From a bacterium (lineage in GTDB: Bacteria > Patescibacteriota > Minisyncoccia > UBA6257 > 02-FULL-45-10c): a stretch of DNA of 64,000 nucleotides. Of this stretch, positions 20,628-34,088 are shown one piece after another. Made by a program: the position numbers and the translations under genes. The notes under the pieces are model-generated. The model was not told the DNA's origin. It was given only the letters and a program-made list of their open reading frames with translations, and did not search any database. How positions within the stretch are numbered: the first letter of the stretch is position 1; each line of letters begins with the position of its first letter. The DNA lies in contig JAUSKP010000048.1 in assembly GCA_030646555.1 (NCBI GenBank), forward strand, positions 2,236-66,235. Reading direction: 5' to 3'.

Positions 20628-21083
20628 ATGATAGCAAGATTTAGTAATTTGAAAGAAAGGTATCCTTTTATTCCTCAATTCATCAGATTCTTCCTTGTTG
20701 GAGCTATAAATACCGGAATAGATTTCGCGGTGCTGAATTTTCTTATTTTTTTTACCGAAAAAAGCAGCGGTGTTTACTATCCAGTTTTTAAATTTATTTC
20801 TTTTATGATTGCGGTCACCAATAGCTATTTTATGAATAAATATTGGACTTTCAAGTCCGATGATGCGTGCGGCGCAAAGCCTGGTGAATTTTTGAAGTTT
20901 TTGGGCGTTTATTTGGTTGGCGCAATAGTTAATGTCGGCGTTGCCACATATGTAGTAAATTACATTAGCGCCCCAATCGGATTTTCACCGGTCTTATGGG
21001 CGAATGTAGGGGCCTGTTTTGCAGTAGTGTTTACTCTTACTTGGAATTTCGTAGGTCTTAAATTTATAGTTTTTAAGAAATAA
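20628..21083 (+). CDS. GtrA-family membrane protein (polysaccharide synthesis/translocation associated)
   Basis: FIRFFLVGAINTGIDFAVLNFLIF N-terminal signature; 4 TM helices; 151 aa. Confidence 0.65.
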   Translation: MIARFSNLKERYPFIPQFIRFFLVGAINTGIDFAVLNFLIFFTEKSSGVYYPVFKFISFMIAVTNSYFMNKYWTFKSDDACGAKPGEFLKFLGVYLVGAIVNVGVATYVVNYISAPIGFSPVLWANVGACFAVVFTLTWNFVGLKFIVFKK

Positions 21084-21186: not shown

Positions 21187-21231
21187 AAGTGAATTGTTCG
21201 TTCCAAATTCAGAAAAAGGAGATAAAAAAGA

Positions 21232-21369
21232 TGTCAGAACCGAAAAAAGAGCTGAGTAGCGAGGATCAGAAAAGCGAGGAGGCTTTTGCCGATCTGGTCT
21301 TTGCTAGCGAAAATGCGGTTATGGACAAAACCGGCTGGTTCGAAGTTCCGGTAAAGGCAGGGGAATAAG
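21232..21369 (+). CDS. small acidic protein (45 aa), hypothetical
   Basis: MSEPKKELSSEDQKSEEAFADLVFASENAVMDKTGWFEVPVKAGE. Strong RBS AAAGGAG 8 nt upstream, consensus promoter before it and a terminator after it. Below the ORF-track length cutoff. Confidence 0.45.
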
Positions 21370-21466: not shown

Positions 21467-21577
21467 TGTCATTCCGGGCTCGACCCGGAATCCAGTCCGT
21501 CATTGCGAGCCCTAAAGGGGCGTGGCAATCTAATGAATTACTAGAGATTGCTTCGTCGCAGACTTCTCGCAATGACG
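21467..21577. repeat. composite palindromic element (A-unit, B-unit, spacer, inverted B-unit)
   Basis: TGTCATTCCGGGCTCGACCCGGAATCC + GTCATTGCGAGCCCTAAAGGGGCGTGGCAATC ... GATTGCTTCGTCGCAGACTTCTCGCAATGACG. Confidence 0.8.
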
Positions 21578-21921: not shown

Positions 21922-21944
21922 AAATATAATACTCGTCATTGCGA

Positions 21945-22007
21945 TTGCCGCTGAAGCAATCTATTTTAATCACGAGATTGCCACGTCGCAGACTCCTCGC
22001 AATGACA
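21945..22007. repeat. composite palindromic element (B-variant + inverted B-unit) between hpf and secA
   Basis: GTCATTGCGATTGCCGCTGAAGCAATC ... GATTGCCACGTCGCAGACTCCTCGCAATGACAGA. Ends 10 nt before the secA ATG. Confidence 0.8.
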
Positions 22008-22016
22008 GAAAAATAA

Positions 22017-24365
22017 ATGTTTAACTTTTTTTCTTTTTTTGATCCGGTCAAGAAGCTTAAACCGGTTATTGAAAAAATAAATGATCTGGAAAAAGAAATA
22101 TCTTCTTTGAGCAATGAACAGCTTTTGGAAGAAAGCAAAAAACTTTTTGAAATAGAAATAGGCGAGAATGAATTGGTAAAAGGTTTTGCTTTAGTCAGAG
22201 AAACTGCCAAGAGAAATCTTGGCCAGCGTCATTTTGATGTCCAGCTGATGGGCGGCTTGGCGCTCCACGAAGGAAGAATTGCTGAAATGGCAACCGGTGA
22301 AGGAAAAACATTGGCTTCCACCGCGCCGATATATTTGAATGCGCTTTCCAAAAAAGGCGTTCACGTGGTAACCGTCAATGAATATTTAGCCAAAAGAGAT
22401 GCTGTTTGGATGGGCCAAATTTATCATGCTTTGGGGCTTTCTGTGGCTTGTTTGATCCACGAAGGCGCTTTGATGTATGACCCAAAATACATCTCTAAAA
22501 ACGCTGAAACGCTCATAGACAGGGAAAGGGACACAACCGGCAGTTTTATGGTGCAAGGCGAGTATTTAAGGCCAATTTCGCGCAAAGAAGCCTATTTAGC
22601 GGACATTACCTATGGCACAAACCATGAATTCGGCTTTGACTACCTAAGGGACAATTTAGCTTATTCTAGCGGAAACCAGGCGCAAAGAGGGCATAATTAT
22701 GTAGTAATTGATGAAATAGACAGCATTTTAATTGATGAAGCTAGGACCCCGCTTATTATTTCTGCTCCGGACGAAGAATCCAGCGATTTTTATAAGCAAT
22801 TTTCGCGCATAGTTTCCATGCTCAAAAAGGACGAGGATTATATAATTGACGAGAAAATGAAGTCGGCCGACATCACCGACGAAGGAATAAATAAAGTTGA
22901 AAAAGCTTTAAAGATAAAAAATCTTTATGATCCGGAAAATCTGAGACTGACCCGATATTTGCAGGAAACCCTGAAAGCTTACGGTTTGTTCAGGCGAGAC
23001 AAAGATTATGTGGTAAAAAATAATGAAGTAATTATCGTTGACCAGTTTACCGGCAGGCTTATGCCGGGCAGAAGATATTCCGGCGGATTGCATCAGGCCT
23101 TGGAGGCGAAAGAAAATGCGCAAGTTCAAAATGAATCCAGGACCTATGCGCAAATTACAATTCAAAATTATTTCAGGCTTTATAAAAAGATTGGGGGTAT
23201 GACCGGCACTGCCAGGACTTCAGCCGAGGAATTTGAAAAAGTATACGGACTGAAAGTTTTAAATATTCCGACCAATAAACCTTTGGCGAGAATTGATCAG
23301 CCAGACTTGATTTATAAAAACGAAGGCGCGAAATACAACGCCATTATTGAAGATGTTAAAGAAAGGCAAAAAATGGGTCAGCCGATACTCATCGGTTCAA
23401 TTTCTATAGAAAAAAATGAAATTTTGTCTAATTTGCTTAATAAATTCGGCGTGAGACACGAAATATTAAATGCTAAAAATCATGAACGTGAGGGCGCCAT
23501 TATTGCCCAGGCAGGAAGAGTCGGGGCCGTGACAGTCGCCACTAATATGGCGGGCCGTGGTGTAGATATTGTTCTTGGCGGCAATCCGGTGGATCCGGTA
23601 GAAAACCAAAAGGTAAAAGAATTGGGCGGACTCCACGTGATCGGCACGGAAAGGCACGAGGCTAGAAGAATTGACTATCAGCTTCAGGGACGAAGCGGAA
23701 GGCAGGGAGATCAAGGCTCATCCCAGTTTTTCCTTTCCTTGGAAGATGATCTTTTGCGTGTTTTTGGCGGAGAAAGAATTAAAAATTTAATGGAAAATTT
23801 TAATATCCCTGAAAATATGCCAATTGAATCGGGGATTGTGTCCAAAGCAGTTTCTCAAGCTCAAACCAAAATTGAAGGATTTAATTTTGACTCAAGAAAA
23901 AATTTGCTTGATTATGACGACATTTTAAATAAACAAAGACTCTCTGTTTATAAGAAACGCCAGGAAATGCTTGAAAAAAGTACTCATCCACAAATACTTT
24001 CTGTTTTAGATCTGTTTTGGATGAATCATTTGGAAAGTATGGAGGCCCTGCGGGAATCTGTGAGAATAAGGGCTTATGGCCAGCATGATCCGCTTGTTGA
24101 ATATCGCCGTGAAAGCCACGTTTTATATAGGCAGATGCTGGAGGGTTTTGAGAAATGGCTTGTTGAAAATAAAGAAAAAATTGAGGAAATGATTAAACAA
24201 CAAGCAGCCTCCTCTGTCATTCCCGCGAAAGCGGGAATCCAGGAAAAGAACTGGATTCCGGGTCAAGCCCGGAATGACAACAAGATGAATGGCCAAAAAG
24301 TTGGCAGAAATGATAATTGTCCATGCGGAAGCGGAAAAAAATACAAAAAGTGCCACGGAAAATAA
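22017..24365 (+). CDS. secA: preprotein translocase ATPase SecA with C-terminal zinc-binding tail and an in-frame repeat-encoded insertion
   Basis: DEAD-like motor motifs (MATGEGKT, VIDEIDSILIDEARTPLIIS), C-terminal CPCGSGKKYKKCHGK. Residues VIPAKAGIQEKNWIPGQARND are encoded by an A-family repeat pair. Confidence 0.9.
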   Translation: MFNFFSFFDPVKKLKPVIEKINDLEKEISSLSNEQLLEESKKLFEIEIGENELVKGFALVRETAKRNLGQRHFDVQLMGGLALHEGRIAEMATGEGKTLASTAPIYLNALSKKGVHVVTVNEYLAKRDAVWMGQIYHALGLSVACLIHEGALMYDPKYISKNAETLIDRERDTTGSFMVQGEYLRPISRKEAYLADITYGTNHEFGFDYLRDNLAYSSGNQAQRGHNYVVIDEIDSILIDEARTPLIISAPDEESSDFYKQFSRIVSMLKKDEDYIIDEKMKSADITDEGINKVEKALKIKNLYDPENLRLTRYLQETLKAYGLFRRDKDYVVKNNEVIIVDQFTGRLMPGRRYSGGLHQALEAKENAQVQNESRTYAQITIQNYFRLYKKIGGMTGTARTSAEEFEKVYGLKVLNIPTNKPLARIDQPDLIYKNEGAKYNAIIEDVKERQKMGQPILIGSISIEKNEILSNLLNKFGVRHEILNAKNHEREGAIIAQAGRVGAVTVATNMAGRGVDIVLGGNPVDPVENQKVKELGGLHVIGTERHEARRIDYQLQGRSGRQGDQGSSQFFLSLEDDLLRVFGGERIKNLMENFNIPENMPIESGIVSKAVSQAQTKIEGFNFDSRKNLLDYDDILNKQRLSVYKKRQEMLEKSTHPQILSVLDLFWMNHLESMEALRESVRIRAYGQHDPLVEYRRESHVLYRQMLEGFEKWLVENKEKIEEMIKQQAASSVIPAKAGIQEKNWIPGQARNDNKMNGQKVGRNDNCPCGSGKKYKKCHGK
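24215..24279. repeat. A-family repeat pair inserted in-frame in the secA 3' end
   Basis: TGTCATTCCCGCGAAAGCGGGAATCCAG...GGATTCCGGGTCAAGCCCGGAATGACA translates in the secA frame as SVIPAKAGIQEKNWIPGQARND. Confidence 0.8.
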
Positions 24366-24391: not shown

Positions 24392-24422
24392 AAAAACCTC
24401 CAAAATTTTGGAGGTTTTTTTG
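24392..24422. terminator. bidirectional rho-independent terminator between secA and the pilin-like gene
   Basis: Palindrome CCTCCAAAATTTTGGAGG followed by TTTTTTT and preceded by AAAAA. An additional hairpin AGGAAGTCCGACTTCCT lies at 24370-24386. Confidence 0.75.
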
Positions 24423-24431
24423 CTTCTAAAC

Positions 24432-26768
24432 TTACCTTATTTTTAATTTCAGTCCAGTAATTTCGGCTCTTAATTCTTCAATCTGTTTCTGCTGGTCTTG
24501 AATAGCGCCGGTCAAAATTGCTTCCATACCGGTTGGATTGTACCAATAGTATCCTTTATCATCTTGCGAGATCATTTCCGGAATAACATTTTTAACCTCT
24601 TGAGCAATAAATCCATACTTCAATCCCGGATTTGTGCCAAACTGGCTGTCGTGAAGCGCGTTCCATCTGTAAGAAACAGGGCGAAGAGCCATTATTTTAT
24701 TAAGAGACTCTCCTTTTAATTCACTATAAACATTTTTCCATCGCTGGTCAGAAGTGCTAGTCCAGGCAGTTCCCGTAGACAATCCGGCTGTTCCGACAAC
24801 ACTAAGCGCGTACGTCCCTGGCGCCGTCGTCCCAATGCCGACTTTGCCGGATGAATTTACCGTCAAAACATCACCCACTGAAGCATCGCTAACAGAAAAA
24901 TAATTCTTTCCTCCATTATAGTTTCCATAAGCGGAAGTTGGAGGCGTAAAATTAGCTGTCCATCTGGCAATCCCTTTGCTTACACGAACCTCATCTATTG
25001 CCCCGGTAAATCTTGACCCAGGGGCAGAGTCTGCGCCAAGGAAAAAGCCGGCGGTGGCGGCGTCATTGGTCGGAACCCCTGTTACGTCTTTAGTGTCTTG
25101 AAGTGCACCATCTATGTATAATTTTAGCGTGTTGCTTTGCCTAATAAAGGCGACGTGGTGCCAAGCATTATCACTGGTGTCCACCGTAGAGGTTACATCG
25201 TAGGCCGTCGCAGAGCTGTTCCAAATATACGCCCATAAATATTTCCCGCCGTAAATTTTCCAACTGGAACCGGCGCCGGTATTGTCTCCATATGCAATTA
25301 TAGGGTTAGTCCATTGACTATCCGTAGTAATCGCGCTTTTGTACCATAGATCTATAGTGAATTCGCCGCTTCCCATTTCATAGTCAACGTTATCCGTTGG
25401 TCCGGCAACATAGTCGCCTGTACCATCAAACAAAATAGAACCTGTCCCAAATTTTTGAAATGCTGTGTCAATTTGAGCGTCTGCTTGGCGCGTCATAGTT
25501 TTACTGGATTCATCGGTTATAGTAGCGGAACCGTCTGTTCCATTGGCATGGATAAGCGTTTTACTATAACTGTCATCCACACCTACTTCCGTAAATAATC
25601 CAGTATCGCGTCCTCTTACGTCAAGTGTTGATTCTGGTGTCGTCGTCCCTATGCCGACTTTGCCGGCAGTTGAAATAAATATCGTTGATGTTCCGACTGC
25701 GGTGTTTGCACTGCTAAAGTATGCAAGCTGGCCGGTAGAACCCGTCAAACTCGCGCTTCCGCCCGCGACACAAGTTCCATTTATGGCAAAACAGCCTCTT
25801 GCAACATCTATTCCGCCAGTTGAAGAAAAAGTAGATGTGGCAGTTGAAAAGTTTATGCCATTAGTATTTCCCACAGAAAACAAACTGCCGGGAGTCGTGG
25901 AGGAAATGCCGACGTTGCCGCCATTAGTGATGATTAAGTTAGTAGCCGTGGAAGAACCAATCACAAAAGCTGGACCGGTAATTCCGTTGGGATTGACAGA
26001 CAAAAGTCCCCATGGAGAAGAAGAGGCGATGCCAGTCTTGCCCTCTATTATCATTCCTGAAGTTGGCGCCGCGATAATGCCGTAAGTTGCTCCGACAGAA
26101 GCGCTGCCAGTTATACCCAGTTTGGACAGGGGCGCCGTATTTCCGATGCCGACACTACCACTTATATAAGCATTATTCCAAGGCAAAGCAGTAGTGCCGA
26201 TATCATAAAAAGTTGCGGCGCCGGGAATAAGATTAGAATCAAAAGTAGCGGCGGACACGCGGGCAATTGCCGAGCTTAAAGTGCGGGAAAAAGCGGATGC
26301 CGGATTAGTGGTGTTGTAGCTCAAAGTCAGATCAATTTGCACGGAATCATGCCCTGAATATCCGGAAACTTTTAAAAAGTTAACTGCGTCGGCAACAACA
26401 CTGCTATTGGTAAGCGGTTGGGGAGTGCCGTTAGCTTCTTCTTTATAAACTATGCCGTTTAAAATATAAAATTCCGTAGGATTTTTGGTATCGTCTTTAA
26501 ATCTCAAAACTAAAGTGGAGGTGGAAGTGCCGGCGTCTATATCAATGACAGAAGAATCCCTAATAGATCTCTGCATATTTTGCAGGGTGAAATTAAGCTG
26601 TTCATTGACTTCTATGACGGCAGTTTGCCTGCTTTTAATTTTTGTAGTGTCAATCAGAACGCCGGATAAAACTGCTCCTGTGGCGCCTAAGATGGCGGTA
26701 TAAATTAAAACTTCCATGAGGGTAAAACCACCTATTTTTTTATTTGTAGTCATAGATATATTATACAA
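24432..26768 (-). CDS. type IV pilin-like protein with tail-fibre-like repeats, LamG-like domain and C-terminal S74 intramolecular-chaperone (auto-cleaving) domain
   Basis: N-terminal class-III signal KKIGG|FTLMEVLI with Glu at +5. Gly/Ser/Thr-rich repeats of the GKVGIGTTTPESTLDVRG type. LamG-like segment (WHHVAFIRQSNTLKLYIDG...AIDEVRVSKGIARW). C-terminal ...STSDQRWKNVYSEL...LRPVSYRWN...GFIAQEVKNVIPEM...IQDQQKQIEELRAEI matches the phage tail-spike/endosialidase chaperone domain. Confidence 0.8.
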   Translation of the reverse strand: MYNISMTTNKKIGGFTLMEVLIYTAILGATGAVLSGVLIDTTKIKSRQTAVIEVNEQLNFTLQNMQRSIRDSSVIDIDAGTSTSTLVLRFKDDTKNPTEFYILNGIVYKEEANGTPQPLTNSSVVADAVNFLKVSGYSGHDSVQIDLTLSYNTTNPASAFSRTLSSAIARVSAATFDSNLIPGAATFYDIGTTALPWNNAYISGSVGIGNTAPLSKLGITGSASVGATYGIIAAPTSGMIIEGKTGIASSSPWGLLSVNPNGITGPAFVIGSSTATNLIITNGGNVGISSTTPGSLFSVGNTNGINFSTATSTFSSTGGIDVARGCFAINGTCVAGGSASLTGSTGQLAYFSSANTAVGTSTIFISTAGKVGIGTTTPESTLDVRGRDTGLFTEVGVDDSYSKTLIHANGTDGSATITDESSKTMTRQADAQIDTAFQKFGTGSILFDGTGDYVAGPTDNVDYEMGSGEFTIDLWYKSAITTDSQWTNPIIAYGDNTGAGSSWKIYGGKYLWAYIWNSSATAYDVTSTVDTSDNAWHHVAFIRQSNTLKLYIDGALQDTKDVTGVPTNDAATAGFFLGADSAPGSRFTGAIDEVRVSKGIARWTANFTPPTSAYGNYNGGKNYFSVSDASVGDVLTVNSSGKVGIGTTAPGTYALSVVGTAGLSTGTAWTSTSDQRWKNVYSELKGESLNKIMALRPVSYRWNALHDSQFGTNPGLKYGFIAQEVKNVIPEMISQDDKGYYWYNPTGMEAILTGAIQDQQKQIEELRAEITGLKLKIR

Positions 26769-28206: not shown

Positions 28207-29685
28207 ATGCGCGTTGCAATCATTCACGATTATCTAAATCAATATGGCGGAGCGGAAAGAGTACTTGAAGCTTTTTGCGAGCTTTTTCCTGATGCGCCAA
28301 TCTATACTCTTTTTTACGATGAGGAAAAAACACTCGGGAGATTTAAAGACAAGGATATTAGAACAAGTTTTTTGGATATGAACTGGATTGCCACGTCTCA
28401 CCTGTCCGAAGCTTTACGCGAAGGAGGGTCGCAGGCTTTCCCGATTGCAAAGCAATCGAGGATCCTCGATAAAGTCGGGACTCGCAATGACAGAAAGGGG
28501 GAACTGGATTCCCGCTTTCGCGGGAATGACAGAGAGATTGCTTCGGCGCAGACTTCTCGCAATGACGGAATGGAAGCGGGAATAGTGGAAAAGAAAGGCG
28601 GAATCTTTCATAAATTTGTAATAAATAATCACAGGCTTTTTATCCCGCTAATGCCTATCGCCGCTTCGCTTATGAAAGTTGACGATGACTACGATGTGGT
28701 TTTATCTTCTAGCGCCGGATTCGGAAAGGGGATGAGAGTCGGGAAAAACACTATCCATATTTCTTATTGCCATACGCCCCTGCGTTACGCCTGGGAACAT
28801 TACAAATATTTTAATTGGCAAACTTATTTAAAAATTTTATCTGCCCCGGCTTTTTGGTATTTAAGAATATGGGATAAGTGGGTTGGACGAAAACCGCAAA
28901 AACTAATCGCCAATTCCAAATATATCTCCGAAAAAATAAAAAAATATTATAAAAGAGAGGCGGAAGTAATTTATCCGCCGGTAGATACCGAAAAATTCTG
29001 CGTCAAACCGAAAGTCAAAAAAGGGGATTATTTTTTGGCTGTCGGCAGGCTTATTCACTACAAAAAATTTGACCTGATCATTCGGGCATTCAATAAATTG
29101 AATTTGCCGCTTTTAATAATCGGCAATGGTCCGGAATTGGAAAATTTAAAACAATTAGCTAAATCCCCCCGCCTTCGCCCCGACTTCGCGAATGTTTCGC
29201 CGGGCAAACAAGGCTCCCTCCTTCGCCAAGGCTATGGCGGGCAAGCTGGCGGGCAAAGTAAAATAGAGTTTTTAACTTCCATAACCGATGAGCAATTAAT
29301 TCTTTTATATAATGGCGCGCAAGCTTTTATTTTTCCTCAGGTAGAAGATTTTGGACTGGTGGCCGCTGAAGCGCAGGCTTGCGGAACGCCGGTAATAGCC
29401 CTAAACCAAGGCGGTGGAAGAGAAATAGTTGAAGACGGCAAAACCGGCATTTTGTTTAACAATCAAAATGTAGATGATCTGATTATGGCGGTAAAAAGAT
29501 TCACCCTGTTAAATAATTTCGCTTTTAGAGAAATTCCCGCAAGAGCGGGATTTAACAGGGTAAAAATAAAGCAATTTGACCAAAAATTGATCCGTGAATC
29601 TGCGCTGCGATTTTCTAAAAATAAATTTAAAAAAGCGATATTGAAGGCGGTTTATGAAGCAAGGAATGCGTCATCCCGTACTTGA
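28207..29685 (+). CDS. GT4-family glycosyltransferase carrying repeat-derived in-frame insertions
   Basis: N-terminal MRVAIIHDYLNQYGGAERV, C-terminal GT-B motifs (E..G....EA.ACG.PVIA). Two internal segments and the C-terminal NASSRT-stop are encoded by A/B/C-family repeat units. Confidence 0.8.
   Translation: MRVAIIHDYLNQYGGAERVLEAFCELFPDAPIYTLFYDEEKTLGRFKDKDIRTSFLDMNWIATSHLSEALREGGSQAFPIAKQSRILDKVGTRNDRKGELDSRFRGNDREIASAQTSRNDGMEAGIVEKKGGIFHKFVINNHRLFIPLMPIAASLMKVDDDYDVVLSSSAGFGKGMRVGKNTIHISYCHTPLRYAWEHYKYFNWQTYLKILSAPAFWYLRIWDKWVGRKPQKLIANSKYISEKIKKYYKREAEVIYPPVDTEKFCVKPKVKKGDYFLAVGRLIHYKKFDLIIRAFNKLNLPLLIIGNGPELENLKQLAKSPRLRPDFANVSPGKQGSLLRQGYGGQAGGQSKIEFLTSITDEQLILLYNGAQAFIFPQVEDFGLVAAEAQACGTPVIALNQGGGREIVEDGKTGILFNNQNVDDLIMAVKRFTLLNNFAFREIPARAGFNRVKIKQFDQKLIRESALRFSKNKFKKAILKAVYEARNASSRT
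28385..28585. repeat. tandem B-long, A and B repeat units inserted in-frame in the GT4 gene (about 67 aa)
   Basis: GATTGCCACG...CTCGCAATGACA (109 nt), then GGATTCCCGCTTTCGCGGGAATGACA, then GATTGCTTCGGCGCAGACTTCTCGCAATGACGG. Encodes ...LDSRFRGNDREIASAQTSRNDG.... Confidence 0.85.
29163..29258. repeat. C-family GC-rich hairpin repeat inserted in-frame in GT4 (encodes SPRLRPDFANVSPGKQGSLLRQGYGGQAGGQS)
   Basis: CCGCCTTCGCC...CTCCTTCGCCAAGGCTATGGCGGGCAAGCTGGCGGGCAAAG resembles the 32694-32749 and 33205-33235 units. Interrupts the conserved GT-B region between LKQLAK and KIEFL. Confidence 0.7.
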
Positions 29686-29758
29686 TACGGGATCCAGGTC
29701 GAGGACTGGATTCCAAATCAAGTTTGGAATGACAGAGGGAGAAATGCTCGCAATGACA
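29669..29758. repeat. composite A/A/B-remnant element overlapping the GT4 stop codon
   Basis: GTCATCCCGTACTTGATACGGGATCC (the GT4 TGA stop lies in the hairpin loop) ... GGATTCCAAATCAAGTTTGGAATGACA ... GCTCGCAATGACAGA. Confidence 0.8.
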
Positions 29759-30155: not shown

Positions 30156-30298
30156 TGTCATTCCTGCGAAAGCAGGAATCCATGTTTTTAGTTCATAATC
30201 TCTGGATTCCGGGTCAAGCCCGGAATGACAGATATGAGTAGATTGCTTCCTCCTTCGCATGGCTTCGGACGGACAAGTCGGCGGCACTCGCAATGACG
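30156..30298. repeat. composite palindromic element (A fwd, A rev, B-long rev with internal C hairpin)
   Basis: TGTCATTCCTGCGAAAGCAGGAATCC ... GGATTCCGGGTCAAGCCCGGAATGACA ... GATTGCTTCCTCCTTCGCATGGCTTCGGACGGACAAGTCGGCGGCACTCGCAATGACGG. Confidence 0.8.
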
Positions 30299-32749: not shown

Positions 32750-32820
32750 GCGGGATTAGTACAATGGTAGTACGCGACCTTCCCAAGGTTGAGACGCGAG
32801 TTAGATTCTCGTATCCCGCT
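32750..32820 (+). tRNA. tRNA-Gly (anticodon CCC), atypical T-loop
   Basis: Acceptor GCGGGAT/ATCCCGC is a perfect 7 bp; D-arm GTAC-AATGGTA-GTAC; anticodon arm CGACC-TTCCCAA-GGTTG. The T-loop is TTAGATT with A where the conserved C56 should be, so it could be degenerate. Confidence 0.5.
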
Positions 32821-32942: not shown

Positions 32943-33015
32943 GCCACCTTAGCTCAGCTGGTAGAGCAATGCTTTCGTAAAGCAGAGGTCCCCGGTTCAA
33001 TCCCGGGAGGTGGCT
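32943..33015 (+). tRNA. tRNA-Thr (anticodon CGT)
   Basis: Acceptor GCCACCT/AGGTGGC is a perfect 7 bp; D-arm GCTC-AGCTGGTA-GAGC; anticodon loop TTCGTAA; T-arm CCCGG-TTCAATC-CCGGG; no encoded CCA. Confidence 0.8.
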
Positions 33016-33164: not shown

Positions 33165-33257
33165 TGTCATTCCCGCGAAAGCGGGAATCCAGAAAACCTA
33201 GATTCCGCATCCCTCCGCCGCAAGGCTTCGGACGGGCAAGCAAGTGCGGAATGACAG
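33165..33257. repeat. composite palindromic element (A fwd + A-long rev with internal C hairpin) upstream of prfB
   Basis: TGTCATTCCCGCGAAAGCGGGAATCC ... GATTCCGCATCCCTCCGCCGCAAGGCTTCGGACGGGCAAGCAAGTGCGGAATGACAGA. Confidence 0.8.
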
Positions 33258-33344: not shown

Positions 33345-34088
33345 ATGTTTAACCCATTGCTAGATAAATACGATAAAAAAAACGCCAACATCTCCCTTTT
33401 TCCCGGCGTGGGCGGAGATGATGCAAAAGATTGGGCGATAATGCTTTTGAATATGTACGTTAAATACGCCCAAAAACGAGGCTGGAAAGTGGTTCAAGTT
33501 GACGATAGATCTATAGATATAAGAGGGGAATATGCTTATGGCAATCTGAAAAAAGAAACTGGCGTGCACCGCCTGGTCAGAATATCTCCATTTGATTCCA
33601 AAAAACTCCGGCACACATCTTTTGCTTTAGTTGAAGTTTTGCCGGAAATTCCCGAAATAGAATTAAAGAATATAATAATTCCTTCGGAAGATCTGAAAAT
33701 AGAATTATCAAATTCCAGCGGTCCCGGCGGACAAAACGTGAATAAAAGAGAGACCGCGGTAAGGGCAGTGCATTTGCCGACAGGTCTCGCGGCGGCATCT
33801 CAAGTAGAAAGATCACAGCTTCAAAACAAAGAAAAAGCTTTGGCGTTGTTAAAGGCCAAATTGTTTAAATTGATGGCTGATAAGCAAGAAGGCGAGATAA
33901 AAAATCTTAGAACGCAAGTAAAACCGGAATGGGGCAATCAGATTCGCTCATATGTCCTTCATCCGTACCAACAGGTTAAGGATCATCGCACTGATATGGT
34001 AAGCCATCAGCCGGACAAAGTGTTAAACGGCGATTTGGAAAAATTCATTGAAGCAGAATTGGACACGGCGCCAGAATCTAGAATTTAG
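33345..34088 (+). CDS. prfB: peptide chain release factor 2 lacking N-terminal domain 1
   Basis: SPF tripeptide (RISPFDSKKLRHTSF), GGQ motif (SGPGGQNVNK); 247 aa, aligning from about residue 115 of E. coli RF2. All upstream frames are closed. Confidence 0.8.
   Translation: MFNPLLDKYDKKNANISLFPGVGGDDAKDWAIMLLNMYVKYAQKRGWKVVQVDDRSIDIRGEYAYGNLKKETGVHRLVRISPFDSKKLRHTSFALVEVLPEIPEIELKNIIIPSEDLKIELSNSSGPGGQNVNKRETAVRAVHLPTGLAAASQVERSQLQNKEKALALLKAKLFKLMADKQEGEIKNLRTQVKPEWGNQIRSYVLHPYQQVKDHRTDMVSHQPDKVLNGDLEKFIEAELDTAPESRI

Follow-up and report, generated by a model that had tools for sequence, protein, structure and literature searches.

The stretch analysed here (64,000 nt of a patescibacterial contig, hereafter the window) carries a secA gene. 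The Pfam scan of its ORF returned the complete SecA set (SecA_DEAD, SecA_PP_bind, P-loop_SecA, SecA_SW and SEC-C), and the protein is 100% identical to a database protein annotated as SecA (P0001), which is recorded from one contig. In E. coli, the C-terminal tail of SecA consists of a flexible linker and a metal-binding domain and is dispensable for translocation; the linker has been proposed to occupy the substrate groove and autoinhibit the ATPase (PMC6620043). The tail encoded in the window has the same architecture: an unstructured linker of low conservation comes first, then a CxC...C[HC] zinc motif, whose cysteines C768, C770 and C779 are invariant among 79 homologs. Inside the linker-coding part of the ORF lies a 65-nt nested palindrome (24215-24279), through which the frame continues to the SEC-C zinc finger. 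The features of the gene are the following:

22017..24365 (+), complete secA coding sequence of 782 aa, from ATG to stop codon (ORF list)
24213..24281 (+), repeat-derived peptide SVIPAKAGIQEKNWIPGQARNDN, codons S733-N755, with V734-D754 as the 63-nt core (codon comparison)
24215..24242 (+), REP unit 1, of CGTC-1 type: TGTC tag, stem ATTCCCGC/GCGGGAAT, loop GAAA, tail CCAG
24243..24250 (+), A-rich spacer GAAAAGAA between units 1 and 2 (from the sequence)
24251..24279 (-), REP unit 2, inverted, of CGTC-2 type; on the minus strand: TGTC tag, stem ATTCCGGG/CCCGGAAT, loop CTTGA, tail CCAG
24282..24305 (+), native linker remnant KMNGQKVG, common to the repeat-free ortholog P0008 (codon comparison, 11 orthologs)
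24306..24362 (+), SEC-C zinc-finger (metal-binding) domain, residues 764-782 (Pfam PF02810, E = 6.3e-9)
24392..24419 (+), terminator-like hairpin with a T run, 3' of the secA stop codon (consensus scan)

Two CGTC-tagged REP units in inverted orientation make up the palindrome, which is a heterodimer whose tags face outward. Its outer arms (TGTCATTCC/GGAATGACA) are terminal inverted repeats of 9 nt with 100% complementarity, and inside them lie the inner arms (GGAATCCAG/CTGGATTCC) and a pair of small hairpins; both unit stems have 8 bp, start with AT and are 100% complementary. The predicted fold is a three-way junction, at -37.3 kcal/mol for RNA (z = -6.4) and -20.1 kcal/mol for DNA (z = -6.0), placed 84 nt 5' of the stop codon. 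Matching found three further copies of unit 1 in the window, two of them identical, and two of unit 2, one of them identical, where shuffled sequence gives an expectation of 0 for both. Comparable A-rich spacers occur in related pairs of two other loci (L004 and L010). The element is free of stop codons in three of its six reading frames, and the translation around it reads ...QQAASS-VIPAKAGIQEKNWIPGQARND-NKMNGQKVGRNDN-CPCGSGKKYKKCHGK. This is the peptide given by the first-pass annotation, which had placed the two units at 24215-24242 and 24253-24279 inside the secA frame; both are found there with no mismatch, in the 782-aa ORF that holds all the SecA domains. That annotation also put the repeat directly before the zinc-binding tail, but 13 native residues intervene before the first zinc-finger cysteine. 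The Rfam scan of the region between 19 and 34 kb returned two tRNAs only, with no family above threshold at the repeat; a match of FtrB over the repeat was discarded as chance (27 bits vs a gathering score of 66, E = 0.77).

CGTC-tagged REPs, small non-coding repeats that form hairpins, are defined by a stem of 8-9 bp with A-T pairs at positions 1 and 2, a loop of 4 nt in family 1 and 5 nt in families 2-4, and an unpaired 3' tail near CCA; they are mostly inverted dimers, often heterodimers, present in multiple copies per genome and mainly between genes (PMC3733652). The secA pair agrees with this description in its tag variant, stems, loops, tails and inverted arrangement: TGTC tags on both units (CGTC on other units of the window, e.g. 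at 29669 and 21933), 8-bp stems with an AT start, the loop sequences GAAA (unit 1) and TCAAG/CTTGA (unit 2), and CCA(G) tails, CCA being the end of 236 of the 265 units over all loci. The adjacent pairs inspected in the cross-phylum scan are all + then - (e.g. L014, L024, L033, L048, L073). Di Nocera, De Gregorio and Rocco (2013, BMC Genomics 14:522; PMC3733652) equated CGTC-1/CGTC-2 with R. conorii RPE-6/RPE-4 and Neisseria dRS3. The supplementary table of that study lists VIPAKAGI, SFPRKRES and DSRFRGND as peptides encoded by intragenic CGTC-1 copies of R. conorii, and CHSRESGNP is another characteristic peptide of intragenic CGTC-REPs (PMC3733652). We found VIPAKAGIQ in SecA, with VIPAKAGI identical to the published peptide, and LDSRFRGND in a GT4 glycosyltransferase. 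The analogy with Rickettsia drawn from the sequence at first reading is therefore borne out in a precise form, since the unit fits the definition of CGTC-1, that is, of R. conorii RPE-6, whose intragenic copies encode VIPAKAGI.

The distribution of the units may also resemble that of the published family, which is mostly intergenic with an intragenic minority where pairs encode 20-30 aa. About 10% of the units in our cross-phylum sample lie within long open frames, and exact matches to the 28-nt unit were found in at least 120 genome stretches that span many phyla, among them stretches of a Rickettsia endosymbiont and of several Patescibacteria lineages. Some traits differ from the 2013 description: the host phylum is outside the five phyla listed, secA is not among the interrupted genes (neither 'secA' nor 'translocase' appears in the list), several REP types occupy one site across close relatives, and co-resident units of the window with stems of 11-12 bp (GTCATTGCGAG...) exceed the 8-9-bp definition. 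The secA case is an example of an already described type of intragenic selfish DNA, in a host phylum absent from the 2013 survey.

The window, as distinct from the whole genome, contains at least 10 REP clusters between 19.5 and 33.3 kb, most of them intergenic. Repeat features of the window outside secA are:

21467..21577 (+), intergenic REP cluster 5' of hpf; at this site L004, the nearest relative, carries just one REP unit, which is a different one
21935..22009 (+), REP pair located after hpf and before the secA start codon, with longer stems (CGTCATTGCGA...CTCGCAATGACAGA); L006 and L009 lack it
28378..28608 (+), in-frame REP cluster of 77 aa, residues 58-134 of the GT4 glycosyltransferase ORF 28207-29685
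28504-28531 (-), exact copy of unit 1 within this 77-aa cluster
29500..29564 (+), another nested palindrome of 65 nt, which belongs to a different sequence family and is read in frame at GT4 residues 433-452
30156..30230 (+), intergenic pair of the same type as that of secA, with a unit 1 variant carrying a compensatory stem change, an identical unit 2 and a longer spacer

The GT4 glycosyltransferase gene (28207-29685) holds three in-frame repeat inserts, which make its product about 130 aa longer than its orthologs. The earlier statement that the units are intergenic elsewhere does not hold for every copy: the one at 28504-28531 (-) is in frame in this gene.

Comparison with orthologs supports an insertion. 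Five of the closest orthologs, with 85-90% identity (P0004, P0006, P0008, P0009 and P0010) have no repeat-derived residues in the linker, and the gene order is that of the window in the four whose loci were compared. The first-pass annotation had anticipated a gap of about 21 aa in such orthologs, and the extra segment relative to P0008 amounts to 21-22 codons, with the right flank K(I/M)NGQKVGRNDN common to both. It had also named two observations that would speak against an insertion; neither was made, as the five empty orthologs lack the residues of the repeat and the ORF shows no frameshift or early stop but runs into an intact SEC-C motif. The native linker upstream of the repeat is about 12 residues shorter in the window than in P0008, so that the net gain of the linker is only about 10-14 residues and a deletion or replacement must have accompanied the insertion.

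Other relatives have different occupants at the same site. The sister sequence P0002 (core 97% identical) has a different REP pair with the same left junction, P0003, P0011, P0014 and P0015 have other REP units, and P0012 has a decayed copy that has kept the frame. The pair of the window was found in the secA of two relatives, P0007 and L131 (JGI), the latter with a half-unit followed by a pair identical to that of the window. A perfectly clean empty site is absent among the relatives compared, the nearest of which holds another REP. Rather than one clean insertion, the site is a nest of several REP types that turns over among relatives. On either side of the repeat, the coding sequence is collinear with that of orthologs, and the same junctions between secA and REP occur in three independent assemblies, in the case of P0007 on 7 contigs. 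A metagenome scan for the pair with its spacer gave a single match, in another secA, a result that is uninformative on sites outside secA.

The shared pair is more conserved than its surroundings. Between the window and L131, it is identical at 62/62 positions with flanks 80% identical (P = 8e-7), and between the window and P0007 at 58/62 with flanks 76% identical (P = 4e-4). This is unlike a neutral passenger inherited vertically, and an extra force is therefore needed, be it re-insertion, gene conversion or selection. Vertical inheritance of one ancestral pair was accordingly rejected as the whole story, because the core tree separates the carriers and the pair outconserves its flanks. Together with the REP difference at one intergenic site between close relatives, this conservation implies that occupied sites turn over. 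Three of the four substitutions in the P0007 pair are synonymous and two of the four disrupt stem pairs, which hints weakly at constraint on the coding rather than on the hairpin. Stem covariation among REP variants is always canonical, but the finder requires a stem, so this covariation is not independent evidence of structural constraint.

The linker itself seems well suited to accept such elements. Its mean column conservation is 0.13-0.20, vs 0.5-0.93 elsewhere in SecA, its length ranges from 29 to 78 residues across homologs, and the AlphaFold model gives residues 736-759 a pLDDT <50 and coil, with no secondary structure. When a library of REP peptides was compared with 120 SecA homologs, hits with multiple matches fell only 29-53 residues from the C-terminus, which confines recognisable REP-derived peptides to this linker. 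No other part of SecA is less conserved or modelled with less confidence, and the insertion probably persists because almost no constraint bears on the sequence or length of the linker. With low conservation, variable length, low pLDDT and empty orthologs all pointing the same way, the initial proposal of a palindromic element tolerated in a variable linker is supported.

Our results make it very probable that the secA segment is an inverted CGTC-tagged REP pair, in frame in a flexible linker and tolerated there, probably as a selfish or neutral passenger. Such a pair would have joined the secA coding sequence in the linker between the helical scaffold and the C-terminal zinc-binding domain. 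The ribosome would read through the 63-nt core, because the reading frame has no stop codon, and SecA would gain about 21 residues of unstructured linker while keeping its zinc finger. REPs may accumulate here because they tend to land within or next to REPs already present, or because recombination or gene conversion exchanges them with other copies. An occupied site would then act as a landing pad whose occupants change but stay near the family consensus, and the REP-derived peptide itself would have no required function.

The REP residues might instead have been recruited into a functional SecA linker, for example by altering the length or the binding of the autoinhibitory segment. Since the E. 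coli linker is proposed to autoinhibit the ATPase (PMC6620043), changes in the linker could matter, and the persistence of the pair in three diverged lineages, the synonymous nature of three of the four P0007 substitutions and the retention of REP-derived linkers by several relatives, which could have lost them, fit such a role. Yet close relatives do without a REP or have unrelated REP peptides, the REP-derived linker of P0012 decays freely, the same peptides turn up in unrelated proteins as well as in spurious short ORFs, the model shows the segment as disordered, and four substitutions in P0007 are too few for a test of selection. We thus regard this exaptation as quite unlikely. A function in the secA mRNA, where the hairpin would for example block 3'-exonucleases, be targeted by an RNase or make ribosomes pause, seems very unlikely. 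In its favour, the predicted RNA fold has high stability, conservation of the element exceeds that of its flanks, paired changes in the stems distinguish REP variants (in units selected for having stems), and RNA roles have been proposed for many REPs (PMC3733652). Against this, two of the four P0007 changes break stem pairs, repeat-free orthologs exist, a stable 3' end within the ORF would give non-stop transcripts, an ordinary terminator follows the secA stop codon, and no Rfam family exceeds its threshold.

That there was no insertion at all, the residues being native to SecA and alike by chance, or the contig an assembly chimera made from collapsed repeats, is hardly credible. Metagenome assemblers can join contigs at repeats and the window protein comes from a single contig, but two further identical copies of unit 1 and one of unit 2 are present in the window where 0 are expected, the flanking coding sequence on either side aligns collinearly with orthologs, and L131 (JGI) and P0007, the latter on 7 contigs, show the same junctions independently.

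The target-site duplication suggested by the first-pass annotation is not visible, as the flanks of the seven window copies inspected share no direct repeat. The pair at 21935 has AAAAAT on both sides, which could be chance in AT-rich DNA. In the 20 ORFs scanned with Pfam from 16 to 44 kb, no transposase domain was detected, nor was a parent insertion sequence of the secA element found. No transposase is known for the CGTC superfamily (PMC3733652).

Other known systems match less well. RPE-1, the Rickettsia palindromic element (Ogata et al. 2000, Science 290:347, as summarized in PMC10969869), is similar in being palindromic selfish DNA found in frame in many unrelated genes, including housekeeping ones, and judged compatible with the fold and function of the protein. 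Compared by description, it is larger (about 100-150 bp, with a conserved peptide of about 30-50 aa) than the secA element, which has 65 nt, 21-23 aa and two short REP units. REPINs (Bertels and Rainey 2011, PMC3116915) likewise form multi-copy populations near a consensus within a genome, but they have a GTAG tag and a single-copy RAYT gene, encoding an IS200/IS605-like tyrosine transposase, flanked by REPs; the tag of the secA element is TGTC/CGTC. MITEs in genes, such as ERIC (reviewed in PMC10969869), are also short, non-autonomous, bounded by terminal inverted repeats and able to make in-frame fusions. They differ from the secA element, for which no target-site duplication or parent insertion sequence was found. 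Typical MITEs are also larger than its 65 nt.

The secA element belongs to the same REP family that is spread over many phyla. In a broader scheme, the SecA linker of this clade could be a landing pad where REPs insert, nest, swap and are re-homogenised, the REPs could serve as portable homology through which diverged secA alleles recombine, and a conserved mobile or host activity could lie behind the exact 28-nt unit. We consider this scheme rather unlikely as a whole. If it were true, linker cassettes and the short and long variants of the zinc finger would shuffle independently of a core that is 90-97% identical, and the constancy of the 28-nt unit from Rickettsia to sub-megabase Patescibacteria, with no transposase known, would imply that an activity conserved across many lineages, of the host or of a mobile element, makes or corrects these repeats, also in essential genes.

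REP segments lengthen proteins and seed spurious short ORFs, and should be masked when proteins of Patescibacteria are annotated, aligned or used for phylogeny. A protein search with the doubled 22-aa peptide gave 94 matches, all of 30-77 aa and without a Pfam domain, and those with a name were almost all 'hypothetical protein'; the search missed P0001 and is uninformative on the frequency of the pair in real genes. Literature searches on the peptide and on REPs in Patescibacteria/Candidate Phyla Radiation returned nothing relevant, but their coverage was incomplete and they are weak evidence of novelty. In one linker of one essential gene, empty sites stand beside intact pairs of two types, nested pairs, half-units and a decayed copy, a compact natural series for the arrival, nesting, near-consensus upkeep and decay of REPs.

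The secA reading frame (22017-24365, +; 782 aa) has all SecA Pfam domains, with a SEC-C zinc-finger motif (residues 764-782) at its end. The two repeat units that the first-pass annotation had placed inside it are found at the stated coordinates without a mismatch; they are REP units in inverted orientation and form a 65-nt nested palindrome (24215-24279). Our preferred reading, which we consider very probable, is that this CGTC-type REP pair is a tolerated, probably selfish insertion in the flexible linker of SecA, lying within a nest of REPs that turns over.

Parts of the 65-nt element in secA
24215-24242, + strand: unit 1, TGTC-ATTCCCGC-GAAA-GCGGGAAT-CCAG
between the units: A-rich spacer, GAAAAGAA
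24253-24279, inverted: unit 2, read on the minus strand as TGTC-ATTCCGGG-CTTGA-CCCGGAAT-CCAG

The repeat lies in frame, as had been claimed: the reading frame traverses it and enters the zinc finger, since the codons read ...QQAASS VIPAKAGIQEKNWIPGQARND NKMNGQKVGRNDN CPCGSGKKYKKCHGK and then stop. It does not lie directly before the Zn-binding tail, because 13 native residues separate it from the first cysteine. Both units recur in the window, and shuffled sequence yields no copies. The statement that the other copies are intergenic fails for one of them (28504-28531, -), which lies within a gene. The element is richer in G+C (54%) than the window (38%), and stop codons are absent from three of its six reading frames. 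It folds into a three-way junction both as RNA (-37.3 kcal/mol, z = -6.4 against shuffled controls) and as single-stranded DNA (-20.1 kcal/mol, z = -6.0). An Rfam search over the element gave no family above threshold; a match to the Francisella sRNA FtrB (24189-24302, +) scored 27 bits, below the gathering threshold of 66 (E = 0.77), and is most likely due to chance.

The units correspond to a known class. The CGTC-tagged REPs of Di Nocera, De Gregorio and Rocco (2013, PMC3733652) are mostly inverted dimers; each unit has a CGTC or TGTC tag that stays unpaired, a stem of 8-9 bp beginning with two A-T pairs, a loop of 4 or 5 nt and a CCA tail. The secA units show all these features, unit 1 being of the CGTC-1 and unit 2 of the CGTC-2 type. 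The same authors equated CGTC-1 and CGTC-4 of R. conorii with RPE-6 and RPE-4, and their supplementary table lists peptides from intragenic copies (VIPAKAGI, SFPRKRES, CHSRESGNP-like and DSRFRGND) that are the window unit translated in its various frames. When the exact 28-nt unit TGTCATTCCCGCGAARGCGGGAATCCAG was sought in one genome per GTDB species, at least 120 stretches carried it; the matches listed include a Rickettsia endosymbiont, Alphaproteobacteria, Planctomycetota, Desulfobacterota, Chloroflexota, Nitrospirales, Omnitrophota, Bacteroidota, Leptospiraceae and several Patescibacteria lineages. Taken together, the shared features, the equation with RPEs, the common peptides and the cross-phylum unit place the secA element, by sequence, in one repeat superfamily with the Rickettsia RPEs, so that the likeness proposed earlier goes beyond analogy. 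A crude estimate puts about 15 of the 146 exact units of this cross-phylum sample in frames that stay open for 200 codons or more, among them a pair in a Rickettsia endosymbiont frame of 1137 codons; this agrees with published work, in which a minority of copies lie inside genes. No dedicated transposase is known for these REPs (PMC3733652), and a scan of 20 window ORFs lying between 16 and 44 kb found no transposase domain.

Going by the names that relatives bear in their sources, a protein search puts the window in Patescibacteria. We compared the secA loci of eleven close relatives and of one metagenome match found by DNA pattern. The upstream hpf is common to 10 of the 11 relatives, and 8 also have SIMPL and GtrA genes further upstream. 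The repeat-derived residues are absent from five orthologs that are 85-90% identical over the full length (P0004, P0006, P0008, P0009 and P0010). A gap of about 21 residues had been predicted, and the comparison with P0008, which shares the right flank K(I/M)NGQKVGRNDN, comes close to this: the extra segment is a 63-nt core, GTCATT...AATGAC (21 codons), plus one extra window codon. The net gain of the linker is only ~10-14 residues because its native upstream part is shorter in the window. A clean empty site could not be defined among the relatives' secA loci. Nor could the anticipated target-site duplication be defined at the element, and the flanks of seven window copies showed no consistent one. 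Chance resemblance or an assembly artefact would account for the repeat with next to no probability, as three independent assemblies have the same junctions.

The linker seems well suited to accept such an insertion. Mean column conservation among 79 SecA homologs is 0.13-0.20 at residues 721-760, against 0.5-0.93 elsewhere, and linker length ranges from 29 to 78 residues (median 38; 48 in the window). In an AlphaFold2 model (mean pLDDT 79.9), residues 733-766 lack secondary structure and pLDDT falls below 50 at residues 736-759; the repeat encodes residues 733-755. The C-terminal tail of E. coli SecA, a flexible linker followed by a small metal-binding domain, is dispensable for translocation, and a role in autoinhibition has been proposed for the linker, which would occupy the substrate groove (PMC6620043).

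Relatives hold different REPs at this site. The sister sequence P0002 (core 97% identical, third-position identity 0.72) has another pair with longer stems (VIASEAKQS...LPRAKALAMT) that begins at the same left junction. P0003 has the same long-stem pair, and P0012 has a copy of it decayed through point changes and still in frame. In P0011 only the right half of this pair is present, following a third unit type; P0015 has two half-units and P0014 other REP units. The window-type pair recurs with the same junctions in P0007 (core 88% identical, from another clade of the core tree) and in L131, the sole match of a metagenome search for the pair including its spacer; in both, a unit or remnant of the long-stem family precedes it. 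We also screened 120 SecA homologs with 6-mer peptides from REP units outside secA. Multiple hits occurred in six homologs, all 29-53 residues from the C-terminus, and the rest of SecA gave only single chance hits in conserved motifs. Since other regions of SecA accept indels too, tolerance alone may not explain this concentration; REPs may also nest within other REPs or favour the 3' ends of genes.

The pair is much better conserved than the coding sequence around it. It is identical to that of L131 at 62 of 62 positions (flanks 80%; P = 8e-7) and to that of P0007 at 58 of 62 (flanks 76%; P = 4e-4); the long-stem pair matches between P0002 and P0003 at 70 of 72 (core nucleotide identity 0.86). 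Neither this conservation nor the scatter of carriers on the core tree fits a neutral passenger inherited by simple vertical descent. At the intergenic site upstream of hpf (21467-21577), the window has a 110-nt cluster (an A-family unit, the type found in secA, and a long-stem pair), where L004, the nearest relative's locus, has a single different 28-nt unit (~2530-2560), both bounded exactly by GATTAGTAAAAAGAA and AAGATAATAATTAAA. We infer turnover at sites occupied by REPs. New REPs could insert within resident ones or next to them, or resident ones could undergo recombination or gene conversion with copies elsewhere, and such turnover would also hold copies close to the family consensus. 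The alternative is that the hairpin or the peptide is under selection. Three of the four changes in P0007 are synonymous and two break stem pairs, too few to decide on selection. We find it improbable that the in-frame peptide was exapted as a SecA linker module, and slightly more so that the hairpin acts at the mRNA level.

In-frame REP and RPE insertions are established in the literature, and the element is part of a described superfamily. As far as an incomplete literature search found, the host phylum (Patescibacteria), the SecA C-terminal linker as a target, and a series in which a single site is seen empty, intact, nested or decayed appear to be new.

Two zinc-finger variants occur among SecA cores 90-97% identical, the short CPCGSGKKYKKCHGK and the long CPCGAKxxxGxxIKYKxCHGK (24318-24362; tails of P0002, P0005, P0006, P0013 and L131). 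Their patchy distribution, in all combinations with REP states, suggests that the 3' tail of secA recombined between lineages.

A second gene is similarly affected. The GT4-type glycosyltransferase (28207-29685, +) has 492 aa, compared with ~360 aa for most of the 120 matches listed, and alignment with eight close orthologs assigns the ~130-aa excess to three in-frame repeat insertions.

Inserts in the glycosyltransferase
residues 58-134: cluster of REP units, including the exact unit 1 copy (28504-28531, -)
residues 322-351: G+C-rich, non-palindromic repeat
residues 433-452: another 65-nt nested palindrome (29500-29564)

Two orthologs (P0122 and P0123) have other REP-derived inserts at the first site, which is therefore a second repeat nest. 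The 3' end of the gene overlaps a CGTC-tagged REP (29669-29696, +; paired with 29707-29734, -) that supplies its last codons (..NASSRT) and, from the REP loop, its TGA stop.

Other features of the window deserve mention. A release-factor-like ORF (33345-34088, +) of only 247 aa seems to lack the N-terminal domain, judging from a PCRF match that begins at profile position 91; upstream lie AT-rich non-coding DNA, a REP pair (33165-33256) and tRNA genes (32750-32820 and 32943-33015). A 45-aa ORF (21231-21368, +; MSEPKKELSSEDQ...GWFEVPVKAGE) lies between the GtrA-family gene (20628-21083) and hpf and is kept in several relatives: L004, L005 and L002 have it with an MSE... start and a C-terminus of GWFE type, and short ORFs are called there in L001, L007 and L009. 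A palindrome (GGAACGT...ACGTTC) and a TTGACA-containing stretch precede it both in the window and in L004, and a terminator-like hairpin follows it. Three two-copy repeat families are unrelated to CGTC REPs (2707-2748/54282-54322; 26784-26816/34074-34106; 45219-45249/57957-57986). They comprise an AT-rich ...ACGAAT... repeat, also present between hpf and secA in L004, L005 and L007, a GAATATAGAATTTAGAA repeat, and an inverted pair, TTGTCCGCCATAGC.../...GCTATGGCGGACAA, resembling the second glycosyltransferase insert. The gene 3' of secA (24432-26768, -) encodes a pilin-signal-like N-terminus with Laminin_G_3 and Peptidase_S74 chaperone domains, and its length and domain content vary strongly among otherwise syntenic relatives.
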